NCBI GenBank assembly: GCA_963723165.1
Contig: CAVRPP010000013.1
Span: 25,103-89,102 of the forward strand
DNA length: 64,000 nucleotides
Direction: 5' to 3'
DNA from: an uncultured Actinomycetota bacterium
Lineage (GTDB): Bacteria > Actinomycetota > Acidimicrobiia > Spongiisociales > UBA4744
How positions within the stretch are numbered: the stretch's first letter is position 1; every line of letters begins with the position of its first letter. The notes beneath the pieces were generated by a model. The model made no database searches. It was not told the origin of the DNA and worked only from the letters and a program-made list of their open reading frames with translations. The translations under genes were made by a program, and so were the position numbers. This document shows, piece after piece, positions 1 through 30,746 of this stretch.

Positions 1-2
1 CG

Positions 3-602
3 GGTCCAATCAACGACTACACGGCCGCCGAGTTGAAGCGTTTCGATGCCGCTTTTCGTTTTGGTTCAAGTCGCGGGTGGCCGTATCGCGACCAGGGCAT
101 CACCGTCCCGACGCTCGAAGAACTCGTCACCGCTTTGCCGGAAGCGTCTTTCACGCTGGAGCTGAAGCAACCCGGGTTGGAGGCTCCGCTGGTGGAGTTC
201 ATCGATAAACACAACTTGCGGGATCGGGTGATGGTCGGCGGGTACGAAGATGCCTGGTTGAAGGAAGTCCGCCGCCACTCCGGCGGCCGCGTCCCCACGT
301 CGAGCCCTCGGCACGAAACCCTGCTGTTCTGGTTGTTCAGCCGGGTCGGGATCGGGTTCCCCATCAAAGCAGACGCACTGCAGGTACCGGTCACGCACAA
401 CAAACTCACGGTCGTCGACCGCCGGTTCGTCCGGGCTGCGCACCAGGCCGGCAAACAGGTGCACGTGTGGACGATCAACAAGGCGCCCGAGATGCACCGC
501 TTGCTCGATCTCGGCGTTGATGGGCTTATGAGTGATGTGCCCGATGTCCTGCTCGAGGTCATGGCCGATCGAAGGGCAGGTGGCCCGCATCATTCGGCTT
601 GA
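3..602 (+). CDS. Glycerophosphodiester phosphodiesterase family protein (5' truncated by window edge)
   Basis: VPTLEEL, LELK, VHVWTIN, LGVDGLMSD motifs typical of GDPD; frame open to the window start. Confidence 0.85.
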   Translation, partial: GPINDYTAAELKRFDAAFRFGSSRGWPYRDQGITVPTLEELVTALPEASFTLELKQPGLEAPLVEFIDKHNLRDRVMVGGYEDAWLKEVRRHSGGRVPTSSPRHETLLFWLFSRVGIGFPIKADALQVPVTHNKLTVVDRRFVRAAHQAGKQVHVWTINKAPEMHRLLDLGVDGLMSDVPDVLLEVMADRRAGGPHHSA

Positions 603-20317: not shown

Positions 20318-22874
20318 TTACTTCTTGCTGTCCCGGCGCGCCTGAAGGAGTTCGGCGGCCCTTTCGAGCGTGATGCTGTCCGGGTCGTCGCCCTTGCGGA
20401 GAGATCCGTTGACCTCTCCATCTGTGACGTACGGCCCGTAGCGGCCGTTCTTGAGTACCACCGGTTTCTTGGAAAAAGGATCGACACCCAGCTCGCGGAG
20501 CGGGGCTGCAGCGGCCTGCTGACCTCGGCGCCGCTTGGGTTGGGACAGCAGCACGAGTGCTTCCTCGACGCTCACAGTGAGCAGTTGTTCCTCGTCTTCG
20601 AGCGATCGGGTTTCGGTGCCCTTTTTGATGTACGGCCCGTAGCGGCCGTTCGAGGCGGTGATCTCCTCGTCGTCCGCCGGGTCTACCCCGACCACCCTTG
20701 GCAGCGACAACAGCTGGAGGGCGACCTCGAGCGTGACTTCCTCCGGGTCCATCGACTTGAACAAAGAAGCGCGCTTCGGCTTGCTCTTTTCCTCCTGCTC
20801 GCCAAGCTGCACGTAGGGCCCGAACCTTCCGGTACGGATGGAAACAGACAGCCCGGTTTCCGGGTCGTTGCCCAGCTCCCGGTCGCCACTGGGGGCCGAG
20901 AGAAGCTCGATGGCTTTCTCGACGGTCAGCTCGTCTGGTGCCACCTGGTCCGGGATGCTGGCGGTGTCGTCACCCCGCTGCAGATACGGTCCGTAGCGGC
21001 CCGCCCGGGCAACGATCTCCACCCCGTCGGAGTCGGTGCCGATGGGAATCGAATTGACCTCGCGGGCATCGATGTCGGCGAGCCGCTCGGTCACCATGGT
21101 GTGAAGACCGGGTTTGCCGTTTCCGAAATAGAACCGGCCAAGCCAGGGAGCCGAGGCCTCTTCCCCCCGGGCGATCTGGTCGAGATCGTCTTCCATCCGG
21201 GCTGTGAAGGCGAAGTCGATCAGGTTGGGAAAGTGGCGCTCCAGCAGGGTCACTTTGGCAAAGGCAGTGAACGACGGCACCAGGGCCGAAGCCTTCTTCC
21301 ACACATAACCCCGGTCCTGGATCGTGGTGATGATGCTGGCATAGGTGGAGGGCCGGCCCACGCCAAGTTCTTCGAGACGTCGGACGAGGGATGCTTCGGT
21401 GAACCGCGCCGGCGGCTTTGTCTCGTGCGACTTTGCCGTCATCTCTTCCACGTCGAGCGGATCCGCCTCGGCCAGCGGTGGCAACCGTCGCTCCTGGTCG
21501 TCGAGGTCAGCGTCGGGGTCGTCGCTGCCCTCAACGTAGGCGCGCAGGAAGCCGGGGAACGCTATGACTTTGCCGCTCGTCGCAAACTCGGCATCTTGGC
21601 CGCTCGACGATGTACCACCGAGGCGAACCTGAATGCTCTCACCGGTCGCATCGGCCATTTGCGAAGCGATCGTGCGCTTCCAGATCAGCTCGTAGACGGT
21701 GGCCTCATCCCCGTCGATCTCAGCAGCCACCTCCTCGGGCGTGCGGAAGGTCTCCCCGGTGGGACGAATAGCCTCGTGAGCCTCCTGAGCGTTCTTCACC
21801 TTGCTCTTGTACGTGCGCGGTTTGGCAGGTACGTAATCCTGGCCGTACATTTCTGCGATCTGTCGGCGGGCCGCCGCCACCGCAGTCTCTGACAGGTCCG
21901 TGCTGTCCGTGCGCATGTAGGTGATGTATCCGTTTTCATACAGACGCTGTGCGGCGCGCATCGTTCGAGCGGTCCCGAACCGCAACTTGCGTCCCGCTTC
22001 CTGCTGCAGGGTGGAGGTGCGGAAGGGCGGGTACGGCGACCGACGGTACGGCTTGCGGGTCACGGAGCGGACCTCAATGCCGGCGTCGGTGAGGCCTTCG
22101 ACAAGCGCAGTTGCGCCAACCTCGTCGAGAGGCAAGGCGTCGCCCGTCAACGCTCCAGATTCCGAAAAATCCTTGCCCGTGGCCAGGCGCTGCCCGTCGA
22201 GCATCACCAGGGTCGCTAGGAAGTTCTCACCGTCTGCGGTAACGAAGAGGCCTTCGAGGTCCCAGAAGGCAGCCGATCGGAAGGCCATTCTTTCGCGTTT
22301 CGCGATCCACGACCACCCGAACGGCGACGCTCTGCACTCGCCCGGCGGAGAGCTTGGGCTGCACTTTCTTCCAGAGCACCGGGCTGACCTCGTACCCGTA
22401 CAGGCGGTCCAGGATCCGTCGCGCTTCTTGCGCCTCCACCAAACGATCGTCTATGTCTCTTGGCTGCTCGAGGGCAAGGCTGATGGCCTCCGGGGTGATT
22501 TCGTGGAACACCATCCGGCGTACCGGGACCTTGGGTTTGAGGACATCGAGCAGGTGCCAGGCAATCGATTCGCCCTCACGATCCTCGTCTGTGGCGAGAT
22601 AGACCTCCGAAGCGTTCTTGAGCGCAGCTTTGAGCTTCTTGATCTGCTCTTTCTTCTCACGGGGGATGATGTAGAGCGGTTTGAAATCGTTGTCGACATC
22701 GACGCCGAGCTTCGACCAGGGCTTCTCGCGATAGGCGGCCGGAATCTCAGCGGCATTGCGGGGGAGGTCCCGGATGTGCCCGATCGACGACTCGACTACG
22801 TAGTCGGAGCCGAGGAAACCGGCAATCGTGCGCGCCTTCGCGGGGGATTCGACAATGATGAGTGGTTTAGACAC
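20318..22874 (-). CDS. topA: DNA topoisomerase I, split by a one-base insertion near 22298-22300 (probable sequencing error)
   Basis: [24 protein letters not shown] in ORF 22227-22874; [23 protein letters not shown] and GRYGPY repeats in ORF 20318-22288; removing one A restores VDRERERMAF. Confidence 0.93.
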
Positions 22875-25066: not shown

Positions 25067-26142
25067 ATGGGCCTTTCGACGGAGTGATCGGGCACGACCG
25101 GGTCGTCGGTCTGCTGACCAGGGAGATCACGGCGCCGGCCCATGCGTATTTGTTCGCCGGCCCATCGAGCGTCGGCAAGGGCACCGTTGCTCATCTTTTC
25201 GCCACGGCCTTGTTGTGCGATGTCCACGGAGTACACGACAAACCGTGTTCGTCCTGCCGCCGGGCGAAATCGGGAAACCATCCTGACCTTATTGCCGTTG
25301 AGCCCGACGGGCGGACGGCCCTATCGGTCGAGCAAGCCAGGGCAACAGTTGCACAGGCACCGATGGCGCCGGTTGAAGGGGATAGAAAGGTGTTTGTGTT
25401 CGACGAGGCGGGCTCGATGTCCGAGCAGGCAGCTAGTGCGCTGCTGAAGACCATCGAGGAGCCGACTCCGAGCACGGTGTTTGTGCTCGTCGTCGAATCG
25501 GAAGATGACCTCCCGTCGACCATCGCCAGTCGTTGTCGCTCCGTGCAGTTCGGTCGGGTACGCGAAGAGACCCTCATCGGCGCGTTGGAGGCCCGCGGTA
25601 TCGATGCCGACCAGGCCGGTGAAGCTGCCCGGATCTCCGGGGGCCGTCCCGGCTTGGCCTTGGGGTTGGCGACCAACCGCGATCTGGCCGCCTACCGGGA
25701 TTTGTGGCTCAGTGTTCCGGTGCGCGTATCTCCTCATCCGGGGGAGGCCTTCCGTCTCGCCGACGCAGTCCTGGAGGCGGCCGAACCCCTTCTCAAGGCA
25801 CTCGATGCGCGGCAAAGGGGGGAAGCTACCGACGATCTTCCGCCCTCCCGTCTCAAGGCGCTACGGGAGCGGCACGAGCGGGATCGGCGGCGGGAGAAGC
25901 GGGCTTTGCACATCACCGGCTTGGAGATCCTGGCTTCCTGGTACACCGACGCTGCTTCCGCTCAGTTCGGGGGGCCGGTCCGCAATCACGATATCCCGTC
26001 CGCCACCCTGGCGATGATTCGACCGGGCGCAGCCGTATCCAATGCCGACCGGGTATTGAACGCGGTCACAGAGTTGCAGGCCAATCAGCGTCCTCAGCTG
26101 GTGTTCGCCACTCTGTTTGCCGAGTTGACCCCGGCAACATGA
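25060..26142 (+). CDS. holB: DNA polymerase III delta' subunit
   Basis: HAYLFAGP..GK, Zn-finger C..CSSC, HPD, LLKTIEEP, TIASRC; follows tmk. Confidence 0.9.
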   Translation: MVNGPFDGVIGHDRVVGLLTREITAPAHAYLFAGPSSVGKGTVAHLFATALLCDVHGVHDKPCSSCRRAKSGNHPDLIAVEPDGRTALSVEQARATVAQAPMAPVEGDRKVFVFDEAGSMSEQAASALLKTIEEPTPSTVFVLVVESEDDLPSTIASRCRSVQFGRVREETLIGALEARGIDADQAGEAARISGGRPGLALGLATNRDLAAYRDLWLSVPVRVSPHPGEAFRLADAVLEAAEPLLKALDARQRGEATDDLPPSRLKALRERHERDRRREKRALHITGLEILASWYTDAASAQFGGPVRNHDIPSATLAMIRPGAAVSNADRVLNAVTELQANQRPQLVFATLFAELTPAT

Positions 26143-26155
26143 CGTATTCGAGGGA

Positions 26156-26230
26156 TGGAGCCGGAGCGGGGATTTGAACCCCGGACCTGCTCATTACGAG
26201 TGAGCTGCTCTACCCCTGAGCTACTCCGGC
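26156..26230 (-). tRNA. tRNA-Thr(CGT)
   Basis: GCCGGAGTAGCTCAGGGGTAGAGCAGCTCACTCGTAATGAGCAGGTCCGGGGTTCAAATCCCCGCTCCGGCTCCA: cloverleaf, CGT anticodon, encoded CCA. Confidence 0.97.
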
Positions 26231-26256
26231 GCGGCGCATAAGTTAGCACTCAGCTT
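26194..26256. repeat. 63-bp direct repeat, copy 1 (tRNA-Thr 5' half plus 26-bp leader)
   Basis: Identical to 28353-28415 by base-by-base reading. Confidence 0.95.
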
Positions 26257-26461
26257 TCAGCTTCCAGCTACCAACCGACCGGGAGGTTTGACCTTGCGCT
26301 CCGGGCAAGCGAGGGAGGAGTCAATCGGGTCGGGTGTGGATTCGCTTGTAGCCGGTCTCGGTTCGGGAGACGATGGATTCGAGATTCTGCGTGAGTTTGT
26401 GAAGAAAGGATGGATTGCAATTGGGTCCTCGAGCGTCTGCTGAATGAAGGAGACGGACGAC

Positions 26462-26962
26462 ATGTCCAGGACGCTGCCCGAAGAGACACAAACGGAGAGG
26501 CTCCGTCCGACAGTGTTTGAGGACTTCTATGGGAGCCAATGGTCGGAGATCTACCGCCCGCTGGCCATCACCCTGCGTAATCCCGATCTTGCCCGGGAGG
26601 CTACCGACGAAGCCATGGTCCGTGCCTACCAGCGATGGCGAACAGTCTGCCGCAAGGACAACCCCGTGGGATGGACCTATCGGGTAGCTCTCAATTGGGC
26701 GATCTCGCAGCTCCGACGCAGACGAAAGCTCATCCACACCCATGCCTCGGACAATCCCGGTTGGGATCCAATTCCGGTGGATCCGGCAATCTCGAAGGCA
26801 TTGGCGGAACTTCCGACGAACCAGCGTGCCGTTGTGGTACGGCGCTATCTGTACGACGAAACTCAGTCGGAGATCGCCGATGCGCTCGGGGTTCCGATCG
26901 GAACGGTGCGAAGCCGGTTGTCTCGTGCGTTGACACGGCTTCGAGAGGAGGTCCAACCGTGA
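26462..26962 (+). CDS. ECF (sigma-70 group 4) RNA polymerase sigma factor
   Basis: Region 2 (LAREATDEAMVRAYQRW..GWTYRVALN) and region 4 (LAELP..QR...SEIADALGVPIGTVRSRLSRA); AAGGAG RBS. Confidence 0.92.
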   Translation: MSRTLPEETQTERLRPTVFEDFYGSQWSEIYRPLAITLRNPDLAREATDEAMVRAYQRWRTVCRKDNPVGWTYRVALNWAISQLRRRRKLIHTHASDNPGWDPIPVDPAISKALAELPTNQRAVVVRRYLYDETQSEIADALGVPIGTVRSRLSRALTRLREEVQP

Positions 26963-28250
26963 AACTCGACGAACTGATCACTCCCGAGTTGGAAGTCGAG
27001 CGTTCGGCAGTCCCCCCCTTGTCGGGTTCGCTCGAAACCGTCCTGCGACGTGGTCGCCGCCGTAAGATCACGTCTGTCGCGCTCATGGCTTTTGCCACCA
27101 CAATCCTCGTAGGAGCTGCCATCGGCATTGGTGTCTGGCTGACCGGCTCCCCTGAGCCCGAATTCGTGGCACCGGAGACTCCAGAATCGTGGACCACCTA
27201 CACCGGCGCAAACGGTCTGCTCGGTGAATGTGGGTGCGACATGGCTGTCTCAGATGATGGAATGGTGTGGGTCATCGGCCCGGAAGGGATCTCTTCCTTC
27301 GATGGGACGGCGTGGACGCCGGTACAGGCACCGAACGAGTTCTATCGTGGCGGTGATCTGTCGGTCAACGCAGCCCCCAACCTCGTCCTGTGGTTCACCG
27401 GAGGAGGTCAGGCGGCCCGCTATTCGAGTGGCGAGTGGACGATTCATCGAACCCGAAGACATCGAAGCCTTCGGGCCCCTTCTCCAGGTCGTGGTCAGCG
27501 GTGACGGAGCGGCGTGGGGCCGCGAAGGGGATGATGTGGTGAAGCTCGCGGAGGGATCCTTCGCGTCGGTCAACGAACAATTCGAGCCTCTTCCAAGCCG
27601 TGAATGGGATGAGGAGAATCCCATGATGGTCAGCCCCACTATTGCCGTTGGGCCCAATGGGACCCTGTGGATGGCAGGCGGGCCCGGTGGTGGGACCAGC
27701 TTGTACGAGTACGACGGAATCACGGTTCATACCTATCCCGCTCCTGGAGAGTTCGCTCCGGATCTGTTCGACGATTGCACCGGACGGTTCGGCGTGGCTG
27801 GCGGCCGTGTTCGACATGGAGGCATCGGATGGCCGGTTGCTGAGATTCGACGGCGTAGCCTGGACGACGTTCCCGCTCGGCGGCGTCATCGATGCGGTGT
27901 TCGACTCCGACGGTACGGGGTGGTTCATCGTCGACGACGTTTCCGAGAGGGATCAGTGGTGGCGGCCGCAATACTCCGACCCGGGGGTGTACCGCCTCGA
28001 GGGCGAAACGTGGACTCGCTTCACAATTGACGACGGACTGGCCGGTCACGATCTCACGTCGGTTGTGATTGGGGATGATGGTTCGGTTTGGTTTGGGACC
28101 TATTCCCACGGCGTGACCCGTTATCAATCTGGAACCGATCCGGAGAGCGGCGAACTGATCAGCATCGAGGGTGAGGCGCTCCCACAAGACAATTGGCCGG
28201 CCACGTTTTCCACCACCACAGCTCCTTCTGTCACCACCACGGCTCCTTGA
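26959..28250 (+). pseudogene. Anti-sigma-like membrane protein with extracellular beta-propeller, two apparent frameshifts (about 27445 and 27770)
   Basis: GTGA coupling to the sigma gene; RRGRRRK then TM helix; repeated A/V-x-x-DG-x-x-W and FDG-x-x-W blades continue across three consecutive frames; TIDDGLA (Reg_prop-like). Confidence 0.7.
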
Positions 28251-28352
28251 CGTACCGGCAAGACGACCTGGGCCACAGCAGATAATTGTGCTGGTTTCGC
28301 TCGACCGGATGGTGGGGAATCGCCTGGTAGCACTGCGTTCAGTGGCGGATGC

Positions 28353-28415
28353 TTACGAGTGAGCTGCTCTACCCCTGAGCTACTCCGGCGCGGCGCATAA
28401 GTTAGCACTCAGCTT
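28353..28415. repeat. 63-bp direct repeat, copy 2 (truncated tRNA-Thr 5' half ending in the anticodon loop)
   Basis: ttacgagtgagctgctctacccctgagctactccggcgcggcgcataagttagcactcagctt; no T-arm or 3' acceptor strand. Confidence 0.95.
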
Positions 28416-28513
28416 CCGGCAACCAGCAGCCAGCTGCCAACCAGCGGCCACCACCGGCGGCCAGTCGGCGGGCCTTGATCCCCGACGCGCTATCCGGCGT
28501 AGCGTTGGAAGTA

Positions 28514-30016
28514 ATGGAGTGGCGTCATCGCGAATCCTTCACATGGGCCACCGTGCTGGCCTTGACCGTCGTCAGCCTGGCCGCCTGCACCGGACCGCCC
28601 GCTGTCCCGGCCGCGGAAGATCCGTTCGGTGTTGCGTGGGATGACCGGTCCGCATTCCAACAAGGGCTTGTGGGGACGACAGAAATCGAGGGCCTGGTTG
28701 GGGCCACCGTCTACCACATCGACGTGGTGATCAACCCCGAATTGGATGGTCTCATCGGTCGTGAGTGGGTCCAGTACACAAACCGGGAAACGGAATCCCT
28801 GGAGGAGATCTACCTGCAACTGTTCGCCAATGCCACCGGCGCCGACATGGCAGTTTCCTCCCTCTCGATAGCAGGTACCGAGATCGTCCCGGTCCTGGAG
28901 TGGTCGGATACGGCGCTCAGGGTCGCGCTCCCGACGGCCTTGCCGCCAGGTGAGGCAGTCACCGTGCAGGTGGATTTCGACATCCGCTTCGGCCAAGAGG
29001 GGGTCGGCAGCCGTGGTGTGCTCGGGTACTTCGACGAGTTCTTGCTACTCGACGGCTTCTACCCGGTTGTTCTGGTCTTCGACGATGAAGGCTGGAACGT
29101 GCAGGAACTCGTACCGATTGGTGACATGACCTATCTCGATGCTTCGTTCTTCTTGGTGCGTTTGACCGCGCCACGTGATCTCGATCTTGTTGCAACTGGA
29201 ACCGAGGTCGAACGGGATCGCGCCGGACGAGATCAGGTGGTCACATTTGCCGCCGGACCCGCCAGAGATTTCTCCGTGGCGGCCGCCCCCGACCTCGGCC
29301 TATTCCGCGAGCGGGCGGGGGAGACGGTCATCAACAGCTATGCCCGGTCAGAGGACAGCGACGGAGCAGAAACCGCTCTGCGCTTTGCCGTTGATGCGCT
29401 GACGTTGTTCCACCAGCGCTTCGGTCCTTACCCTTATACCGAGTTTGATGTGATCGGCACCCCCATGCAGTTCCTCGGTATCGAATACCCGGGAATGACC
29501 ACGATTTCACGTGCCATGTACGACCTCGAATCCTTCGTCGCGGACCTGCCGGCGGCGGTCATGCTCGAAGGCACAGTCGTGCACGAGGTTGCTCACCAGT
29601 GGTTCTACAACGTCGTCGGCAACGACCAGCTTGATGAGCCCTGGCTCGACGAGGCCCTCGCCCAGTTCCTCACCGGGCTCTATTACCGGGAGGTCTACGG
29701 CGACCAAGCGGAACAGGAGTACCGCCGGTCCTGGGTCTCCAGATGGGATCGCATCCAGAGTGAGCTGATCCCCATTGGCCTTTCGACCAGTCGGTACGCC
29801 GCAGAGGAATACTCGCCCATCGTGTACGGGCGCGGCCCGCTGTTCTTGTCCGAACTGGAGGATCGGATGGGGCGGGAGGAATTTGCAGGGTTTCTCCGCG
29901 ACTACGTGAAGACCAACCGCTGGGGGATAGCCACCGGCGATGGCTTCCGTGCTCTGGCCGAACAGCACTGTGGATGCGACCTCGGTGAGGTCTTTGCGAC
30001 CTGGGTGGACGGTTGA
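28514..30016 (+). CDS. M1 family zinc metallopeptidase, predicted lipoprotein
   Basis: GIEYP, HEVAHQW...WLDEALA, VYGRG; LAAC lipobox. Confidence 0.9.
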   Translation: MEWRHRESFTWATVLALTVVSLAACTGPPAVPAAEDPFGVAWDDRSAFQQGLVGTTEIEGLVGATVYHIDVVINPELDGLIGREWVQYTNRETESLEEIYLQLFANATGADMAVSSLSIAGTEIVPVLEWSDTALRVALPTALPPGEAVTVQVDFDIRFGQEGVGSRGVLGYFDEFLLLDGFYPVVLVFDDEGWNVQELVPIGDMTYLDASFFLVRLTAPRDLDLVATGTEVERDRAGRDQVVTFAAGPARDFSVAAAPDLGLFRERAGETVINSYARSEDSDGAETALRFAVDALTLFHQRFGPYPYTEFDVIGTPMQFLGIEYPGMTTISRAMYDLESFVADLPAAVMLEGTVVHEVAHQWFYNVVGNDQLDEPWLDEALAQFLTGLYYREVYGDQAEQEYRRSWVSRWDRIQSELIPIGLSTSRYAAEEYSPIVYGRGPLFLSELEDRMGREEFAGFLRDYVKTNRWGIATGDGFRALAEQHCGCDLGEVFATWVDG

Positions 30017-30164
30017 AGCCAGGAAGGTGATTTCACCGGGAAACTGCGTGGTGGGCTGCAGGAAGTCGGTCGCTCTCCAGGCGATTGCGGCTGCGCAAGG
30101 CTGCCGGACTTCTTAGTTCTGACCTTCTCAGGTATCGTCCTGATCGTCCGGCGGGGAGCAGTTT

Positions 30165-30746
30165 CTGGCTGATCAGGCTGATTTCGAGAAAGACGCGATG
30201 GAGTTTGCGCCGCAGCTGTATTCGGCGGCGCTCCGCATGACGCGCAATGCGGCCGATGCTGAGGATGTGGTGCAGGAAACATACCTGAAGGCCTATCGGG
30301 CGTACCACACGTTTCAAGCGGGAACCAACCTGAAAGCGTGGCTGTATCGGATCCTCACCAACACCTACATAAACCGGTACCGCAAGCAAGTGCGCCGGCC
30401 CAATGAGGTGGAATTCGGTGAGGTTGAAGACCTGTATCTCTACAAACGAATGGGCGCGGTCGAGTCGGGGCGCGCCGCCAGAAGTGCCGAAGATCAGGTT
30501 CTCGAGCACTTCGTAGATGCCGACGTGAAAGCGGCAGTCGAGGAACTTCCCGAACACTTCCGGATGCCTGTCCTGCTGGCCGACGTGGAGGGGTTTTCCT
30601 ACAAAGAGATTGCCGAGATCCTGGACGTCCCCATCGGGACGGTGATGTCGCGTCTCCATAGGGGAAGAAAGGCACTCCAAAAAGCGTTATGGGTGTTTGC
30701 GGAGGAACACGGTCTGACGGGAGAACAGGTGGCAGGAGATGACTAA
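30165..30746 (+). CDS. SigH/SigR-type ECF sigma factor (probable CTG start at 30165; first ATG at 30198)
   Basis: [55 protein letters not shown]; followed by zinc anti-sigma. Confidence 0.9.

Follow-up and report, generated by a model that had tools for sequence, protein, structure and literature searches.

Transfer RNA (tRNA) genes are classic landing sites of mobile elements, and in the textbook cases it is the 3' part of the gene that is replaced, with the host promoter staying in charge. Cis-mobilisable elements (CIMEs), as found in streptococci, are flanked by attachment (att) sites, carry no genes for recombination or transfer, and are thought to be deletion derivatives of integrative elements. 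We describe here a 2.1-kb islet that lacks an integrase gene and adjoins a tRNA-Thr(CGT) gene on contig CAVRPP010000013.1 (C13) of an uncultured actinobacterium. It lies within a stretch of 64,000 nucleotides that was analysed as a whole (the window), and at this site it is the tRNA's 5' half, together with its presumed promoter, that has changed hands.

According to passages of PMC8371274, the tRNA gene is restored on integration and in bacteria stays under its original promoter with very few exceptions; they also present the pTN3-like integrases as unique among archaeal ones in using the tRNA 5' half. For pTN3 (Cossu et al. 2017), sections of PMC5495485 place the minimal site at positions 2-44 and describe the rebuilt tRNA as parted from its promoter. 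The filters of the Islander software, as outlined in part of PMC4383910, accept 5' fragments upstream of the tRNA gene (tDNA), and a passage of 10.1101/2020.11.02.365908 concerns an integrase clade of Klebsiella that inserts upstream of arg2, at the D-loop. The 5'-side geometry is therefore rare but already known, and the proposal of the initial annotation that the locus represents an undescribed system is not supported in view of the 5'-half replacement and upstream islands found in these portions of the four sources. Phrase searches of the literature for integration at the 5' end returned nothing, the indexing of the prime sign being the probable cause, and this is not evidence of absence.

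An insertion at the anticodon loop of tRNA-Thr(CGT)

The window belongs to a draft genome (G000) of 2.78 Mb in 16 contigs, 91% complete, and tRNA-Thr(CGT) is the only tRNA gene that ARAGORN finds in the window (Table 1). The 3' part of this gene (26156-26193) is contiguous with the host side, where holB lies, and its 5' part faces the islet. A repeat search gives a direct repeat of 80 nt at 93% identity (26194-26273 and 28353-28432), the first 63 nt of which are identical (26194-26256 and 28353-28415) and comprise tRNA-Thr(CGT) positions 1-37 with 26 nt of upstream leader. The repeat stops exactly at the final nucleotide of the anticodon loop (after CTCGTAA), and beyond this edge the intact gene continues into the 3' stem arm TGAGC and the fragment into GCATC. 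Read in the direction of the tRNA, the fragment comes first, then the cargo and last the intact gene. Both the exact 63-bp direct repeat of leader and tRNA 5' part and the placing of the broken half first and the intact gene last had been recorded in the initial annotation, and ARAGORN and the repeat search bear them out. Its suggestion that the cassette supplied a new 5' half and leader likewise holds, in that those of the working tRNA are on the side of the cassette and the displaced 5' half is still next to the old flank.

The cassette and the tRNA fragment are absent from the syntenic locus in all seven congeners, where the gene order is tmk-holB-tRNA-sigE2 in four (G005, G006, G008 and G009) and tmk-holB-tRNA-M1 peptidase-sigE2 in three (G001, G003 and G004). 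As seven congeners have the site without the cassette, the cassette is an insertion relative to them. The length of exact identity between the two repeat copies is weak evidence for a recent event, since 55 of the 63 identical positions are kept in all eight genomes of the genus (37 in the tRNA and 18 in the leader, one of these T/C polymorphic).

The leader in the first repeat copy has the genus-type TGCTAACTT, which is extended -10-like and, judging by its conservation, probably acts as the promoter of tRNA-Thr. A scan for consensus promoters over 26000-28600 gave no sigma-70-type site, and the promoters of this organism may not fit that consensus. The displaced leader is contiguous with the flank that carries the M1 peptidase and is directed into the 3' end of the second islet gene, so that antisense transcription into that gene is conceivable. 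Just upstream of the tRNA-Thr leader stand arrays with a 7-nt period (CAGCTNC, GCCAGCN, CGAGCTA), at 26257-26285 and 28416-28470 of the window. Such arrays are likewise found in the leaders of G001, G004 and G006 and vary between congeners; in metagenome contigs they vary between strains (a loose end being repeated TTGCCGG), and in G001 they stand on both sides of the M1 peptidase.

The integrase clade and its islands

In a genome of the same family and another genus (G018), holB and tRNA-Thr(CGT) are followed by a decayed tyrosine integrase gene that is divergent on the 5' side of the tRNA and has its N-domain and C-domain in two frames, with part missing. A 5' fragment of tRNA-Thr(CGT) lies on another contig of this genome, directly upstream of the sigE2 ortholog. 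This arrangement implies that the same tRNA site has been used from the 5' side by an integrase-bearing element.

A search of 401 genomes of the order with the 138-amino acid (aa) C-domain of this integrase as query (E <= 1e-15) found homologues in 20 of them, at 25 places, one of which is in the unpublished genome G195. A tRNA gene adjoins the start of the integrase at 23 of the 25, with the integrase divergent from it (5' side) at 17 and co-directional (3' side) at six. The 17 divergent tRNAs are Thr-CGT, Thr-TGT (three), Val-TAC, Arg-CCT (two), Arg-ACG (two), Ala-TGC (two), Asn-GTT, Lys-TTT and Met-CAT (four). Up to 20 kb was fetched for 15 divergent and two co-directional loci and searched for tRNA fragments. 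Same-orientation 5' fragments, covering tRNA positions from about 1 to 38-40, are present on the integrase side in eight of the 15 divergent loci, and the islands that they delimit are 3.1 to 13.9 kb long; at the two co-directional loci the fragments are 3' ones that begin at position 32/33. In six of the eight loci the 5' fragment stops after ...TAA, at the 3' edge of the anticodon loop, as it does in G000, and the two that do not (L078 and L086) have decayed fragments. Entry of the cassette at the anticodon loop, as put forward in the initial annotation, thus agrees both with the congeners that lack the cassette and with a tyrosine-integrase clade that gives the same geometry in relatives, including at this very tRNA.

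The integrases of the clade are 300-345 aa long and XerC/XerD-like, far under the cut-offs of those families, and by Pfam they consist of a SAM-like N-domain and a catalytic domain with no separate arm-binding domain. Because of decay or contig ends, eight of the 25 frames do not reach 280 aa. In an integrase tree the clade stands apart from the two Xer-like genes of G000, and users of the 5' and 3' sides are intermixed within it. A contig search with the integrase of G005 gave four loci, among them a Dehalococcoidia relative (47%) of the 3' type and one Acidimicrobiia relative of the 5' type. The cargo of the islands is diverse and includes a TrwC relaxase, an HK97-type capsid, a PALP enzyme and regulators of the SARP, MarR and LuxR types. 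At L083 (1.8 kb, with a PALP enzyme) and L080 (4.6 kb) an integrase-bearing island is followed in tandem by an islet without an integrase, which indicates that minimal derivatives of this sort recur.

The end of the islet that adjoins the tRNA fragment is also comparable with the corresponding ends of these islands. Among nine integrase-linked ends, the 75 nt on the island side of the fragment have conserved blocks (CGCnGTGC, TTCCCCAGGTC, cagTTATCCGC), and the islet end has CGCAGTGC, TTCCCCA..GGTC and AATTATCTGC. A far-end profile made from nine island ends, G000 left out, was scanned over both strands of G000 (5.55 Mb), and the window segment 28282-28343 (minus strand) was match number 3 genome-wide, in exact register with the fragment. 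True island ends scored 1.6-21.1 bits when each was left out in turn (median 16.8). We estimate that a match at the predicted place, strand and register would arise by chance with a probability of about 1e-5 or less.

At their other end, 58-85 nt from the tRNA 5' end, the integrase-bearing islands have a leader-side module, GCAYAACGCT..CAGCGGATAAC. The island-supplied leaders (L047, L075-L091; nine tRNA species) have in common two modules, at 10-30 and at 58-85 nt from the tRNA 5' end, which read ttacaagggttt and GCAYAACGCTnnnACAGCGGATAAC. The latter holds TGCTAGCGT, which is extended -10-like in the tRNA sense, and from its sequence this module could be a tRNA promoter brought by the island or an arm to which the integrase binds.

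Origin of the islet

The islet is probably a relic or satellite of an element that was inserted from the 5' side at the anticodon loop by a Xer-like tyrosine integrase. At tRNA-Thr(CGT), recombination in the anticodon loop would have admitted an element of the clade from the 5' side, together with a new tRNA 5' half and leader that would have been joined to the 3' half of the host, and the host's own 5' half and leader would have been shifted to the far end of the element. Of this element, both repeats, the far-end arm and the cargo closest to that arm would now remain, after the loss of the integrase and of the arm on its side. With these two gone, the islet is most likely immobile and inherited vertically in the lineage. 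We infer both that an integrase made this particular insertion and the route by which the integrase side was lost. As in tRNA islands generally, an intact tDNA is accompanied by an upstream fragment in the same orientation, the insert is absent in relatives and the crossover lies in the anticodon loop. The placing of the fragment agrees with the configuration rule of Islander (PMC4383910). A complete island would also have an integrase gene inside it, which the islet lacks, and this fits a relic or a CIME-like derivative.

Several observations weigh against this origin. The likeness of the islet end to the far ends of the islands is weak (10.4 bits, genome-wide E 1.5) and counts through its position and register only, and the end of the G018 island does not match the far-end profile. 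The leader-side module is not found in the islet: a motif search in the window gave no match, and a 16-locus profile gave 12 matches with E values up to 36, none of them on C13. No integrase or integrase remnant was detected in the islet by tblastn with a clade integrase (best E 0.96), and in the assembled genome the clade is not represented, the only matches being two Xer-like genes (27-29% identity). Of the 15 divergent loci, seven are without a fragment; five of these are stretches shorter than 6.4 kb, and two are long (L075, 20 kb; L081, 17.7 kb). Finally, a comparison of leaders across the eight genomes shows that the working tRNA has beside it a leader of the native genus type, closest to that of G006, a finding that a simple internal deletion leaves unexplained. 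The attP of the element may have carried a genus-type leader; at L080 and L083 the island and host copies do show leader likeness. It is also possible that aberrant excision in a related host, of the kind known from specialised transduction, picked up the gene pair and the leader, or that the islet was exchanged between strains by homologous recombination.

The first alternative, which we consider unlikely, dispenses with an integrase. It would have the islet arise by homology-facilitated illegitimate recombination, anchored in holB and the tRNA and with its joint falling in the anticodon loop by chance, or by a break-repair event that duplicated a target of about 80-100 bp. Both leader copies are of the native G000/G006 type, as expected from a close-relative donor or a target duplication; the hypervariable heptamer arrays that adjoin the leader are found on both sides of the M1 peptidase in G001 as well; and the slot has seen other gains and losses that are independent of integrases, as the patchy presence of this peptidase shows. 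However, the joint would have to match, to the base, the breakpoint of six of the eight integrase-linked fragment loci, a coincidence of about 1 in 10 even on the assumption that the joint lies within the tRNA. Such an origin would also leave unexplained why the adjoining 70 nt resemble island ends in register, when only three places in 5.55 Mb score as high.

Somewhat more doubtful still is the suggestion, which was that of the initial annotation, that the islet is mobile at present, as an att-flanked, cis-mobilisable cassette moved in trans by a same-clade integrase from another element that shares the cell or enters it. The two crossover sites are intact, with 63 bp of identity, the far-end arm can be recognised, relatives have integrase-less islets in tandem with integrase-bearing islands, and Xer-like integrases without an arm-binding domain may need little beyond the core sites. 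Set against this are the lack of a clade integrase in the assembled genome, the missing integrase-side module, and the fact that the cassette was not met elsewhere. A search with its DNA of 400 other genomes of the order found nothing beyond the conserved sigma core (68-76%), and in a scan of JGI metagenomes identity reached at most 35%. In the contigs of four sequencing runs, which drop rare forms, there was no joint across the 2159 bp that would mark excision and no circle junction among the joints listed. The sole joint across the region, from 26254 to 30166, corresponds to the peptidase-less arrangement of a relative. In the run with pieces identical to the window, the contigs are short and of low depth at the locus.

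A bolder version, to which we give a similarly small chance, holds that the whole clade in these Acidimicrobiia uses the symmetric anticodon stem-loop either way and mostly from the 5' side, so that exchange of the promoter and 5' half of host tRNA genes would be routine for its elements, that the islet is a minimal member still movable in trans, and that from the orphan promoter and 5' half an antisense or tRNA-half-like RNA would be transcribed into the sensor gene, tying the activity of the tRNA promoter to the sigma module.

That two strains or loci were joined at the 63-bp repeat by the assembler, the strain-mix misassembly that the initial annotation had named as an outcome that would overturn it, is very improbable: the assembly is a 16-contig draft with indel errors (a frameshift in topA and two shifts in the partner gene), yet both flanks are syntenic with congeners, base composition is even across the region, and a contig of 370 nt that comes from another study matches 28028-28399 at 92% identity, reaching from the partner gene across the end of the islet to within the tRNA fragment. 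As this contig crosses the right junction, the junction is not an artefact of the present assembly and is shared by related populations. No contig bridging the left junction was found among the metagenome records listed.

Cargo, neighbouring genes and comparison with known systems

The repeats bracket an extracytoplasmic function (ECF) sigma factor gene, sigE1, and the gene of a membrane partner (Table 1), which is the cargo named in the initial annotation, with the correction that the partner lies in three frames. The product of sigE1 has sigma regions 2 and 4, and its score against the NCBIfam SigE-family subfamily is 118 bits, under the cut-off of 141.55. The partner gene starts with GTG at 26959, overlapping the sigma stop (GTGA start/stop overlap), and its product consists of a short N-terminal part, a single membrane helix and a domain on the outside, so that the two genes have the form of an ECF sigma factor with an overlapping single-helix partner. 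The outside domain has a weak likeness to Reg_prop beta-propellers (Pfam, E 0.005-0.006) and to the sensor propellers of hybrid sensor kinases (PDB 4a2l/3va6, E 0.003-0.016). No Pfam family matches the N-terminal part, the sole likeness of which is to the partner of the G018 homologue (36.5% over 63 aa). From gene order and topology the partner is presumed to be a sensor or anti-sigma factor.

The assembly splits the partner by +1 shifts near 27443 and 27769. In contigs from other sediment metagenomes, in which the gene is 90-95% identical, there is one base fewer at 27443 (run X1) and at 27769 (run X3). The essential gene topA (20318-22874, minus strand) is also frameshifted, in two frames with a break near 22290, Toprim and the start of Topoisom_bac lying in one and the remainder in the other, which points to indel errors in the assembly. 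Because of these contigs and of topA, the shifts in the partner gene are most likely assembly indels, or else very recent mutations.

The ECF group of sigE1 is common in the order, and its best class-level relatives are 47-56% identical, the best in the class-level protein search being 55-56%. G000 has no paralogue of the partner, and its best sigma paralogue is 33% identical. No integrase and no partner likeness was found at the loci of the 11 best sigma relatives, ten of which have no tRNA within 1.5 kb, and there is no ECF sigma factor among the 73 frames of the eight related 5'-type islands. On these counts the idea, raised in the initial annotation, of an exchangeable slot for signalling cassettes finds no support. 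The contig of G018 that holds the closest sigma (C139, 50.6%) was considered as part of the G018 island and rejected, as its ends do not overlap and its gene context is different.

Table 1. Coordinates in the window of the islet, its tRNA parts and the adjoining host gene
Feature	Position	Strand	Basis or remark
Intact tRNA-Thr(CGT)	26156..26230	-	ARAGORN; conserved in 7 congeners
Repeat copy 1 (tRNA positions 37..1 and leader)	26194..26273	-	Exact to 26256
ECF sigma factor sigE1, 172 aa	26444..26962	+	Pfam Sigma70_r2, Sigma70_r4
Membrane partner	26959..28250	+	Translation; weak Reg_prop likeness
Islet end adjoining the fragment	28282..28352	-	Resembles far ends of 5'-type islands that have an integrase
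Displaced 5' fragment of tRNA-Thr(CGT), positions 37..1	28353..28389	-	Repeat match
Displaced original leader, with the same -10-like sequence, then heptamer array	28390..28432	-	Repeat match, leader comparison
M1-family peptidase, host flank	28475..30016	+	Pfam; adjoins the tRNA in 3 of 7 congeners, absent in 4

The flanks consist of core genes, with tmk and holB on one side and the M1 peptidase, a second ECF sigma factor (sigE2), a zincin and tilS on the other. On a tree of tmk and holB the M1 peptidase is patchy, being present in G003 and absent in its sister G009. The version in the window is 61-65% identical to those of G001, G003 and G004, and the genes flanking it are 79-91% identical. 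This suggests repeated gain, loss or replacement of the peptidase, and its patchiness on the tree marks the stretch from the tRNA leader to the conserved sigE2 promoter as a hot spot of gain and loss. There are no tRNA fragments around the peptidase in G001, G003 or G004, the only repeat there being the heptamer array in G001. Upstream of sigE2, at about 30120-30197 of the window, CAACTTC ... GGTATCGTC is conserved in all eight genomes and, by its sequence, looks like an ECF-type autoregulated promoter.

The initial annotation proposed a search of the genome for integrases and further 5'-half duplications. In the rest of G000 there are three PF00589 matches, all on contigs other than that of the window, and three further integrase-less stretches bounded by parts of a tRNA gene (tRNA-SeC, tRNA-Ser(TGA) and tRNA-Val(TAC)), all of the usual 3' kind. 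At G000:C9:33124-36337 (L043 3125-6340), three copies of the 3' 66-71 nt of tRNA-SeC delimit two islets that lack an integrase; the islet of 1.9 kb has another ECF sigma factor and a 307-aa partner, and that of 1.2 kb a DUF4386 protein. A 52-nt 3' part of tRNA-Val(TAC) is repeated 6.7 kb off (G000:C15:58471-65263), across PIN, CAAX-protease and hydrolase genes and no integrase, and the 3' part of tRNA-Ser(TGA) with its trailer (121 nt, 97.5%) is repeated 1 kb off (G000:C10:35870-37024). A tyrosine-recombinase remnant (a 189-aa open frame, 40 bits) lies convergent beside tRNA-Val(GAC) at G000:C11:35458-35922.

The islet itself is of modest interest, as it seems an ordinary outcome in which a regulatory pair has been left behind and domesticated after the decay of its vehicle. 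The integrase clade that was reached through it is of somewhat more, as the 5'-side geometry is common and not exceptional for this one clade, at 17 of its 23 places linked to a tRNA in an order of uncultured actinobacteria. Software that looks for islands by their 3' fragments, or that demands an integrase, would overlook such elements as well as the relics of them.

Like the CIMEs, the islet is att-flanked and without recombination genes, and only one of its ends is recognisable as arm-like. With the islands and prophages of tRNA-targeting tyrosine integrases, as characterised in sections of PMC8371274 and PMC4383910, it shares the intact tDNA with a same-orientation fragment, the crossover in the anticodon loop and relatives without the insert; in contrast to them, it swaps the 5' half and promoter and not the 3' half, has no integrase and measures only 2.1 kb. 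In pTN3-like integration of the Thermococcales, as covered in passages of PMC5495485 and PMC8371274, the att site likewise runs through the tRNA 5' half to the anticodon region and the rebuilt tRNA is off its original promoter. However, pTN3 is archaeal and its integrase gene is disrupted on integration (as stated in part of PMC5495485), whereas the integrases of the relatives studied here are whole, Xer-like and beside the att site, in hosts of the Acidimicrobiia; these whole frames do not fit the pTN3/SSV type, in which attP lies within the integrase gene and is split on integration. The arg2 islands of Klebsiella, in the portion of 10.1101/2020.11.02.365908 that concerns them, differ from the islet in their D-loop sublocation and in carrying an integrase, and resemble the clade described here in being the work of a bacterial integrase clade that places its islands upstream of the tDNA.

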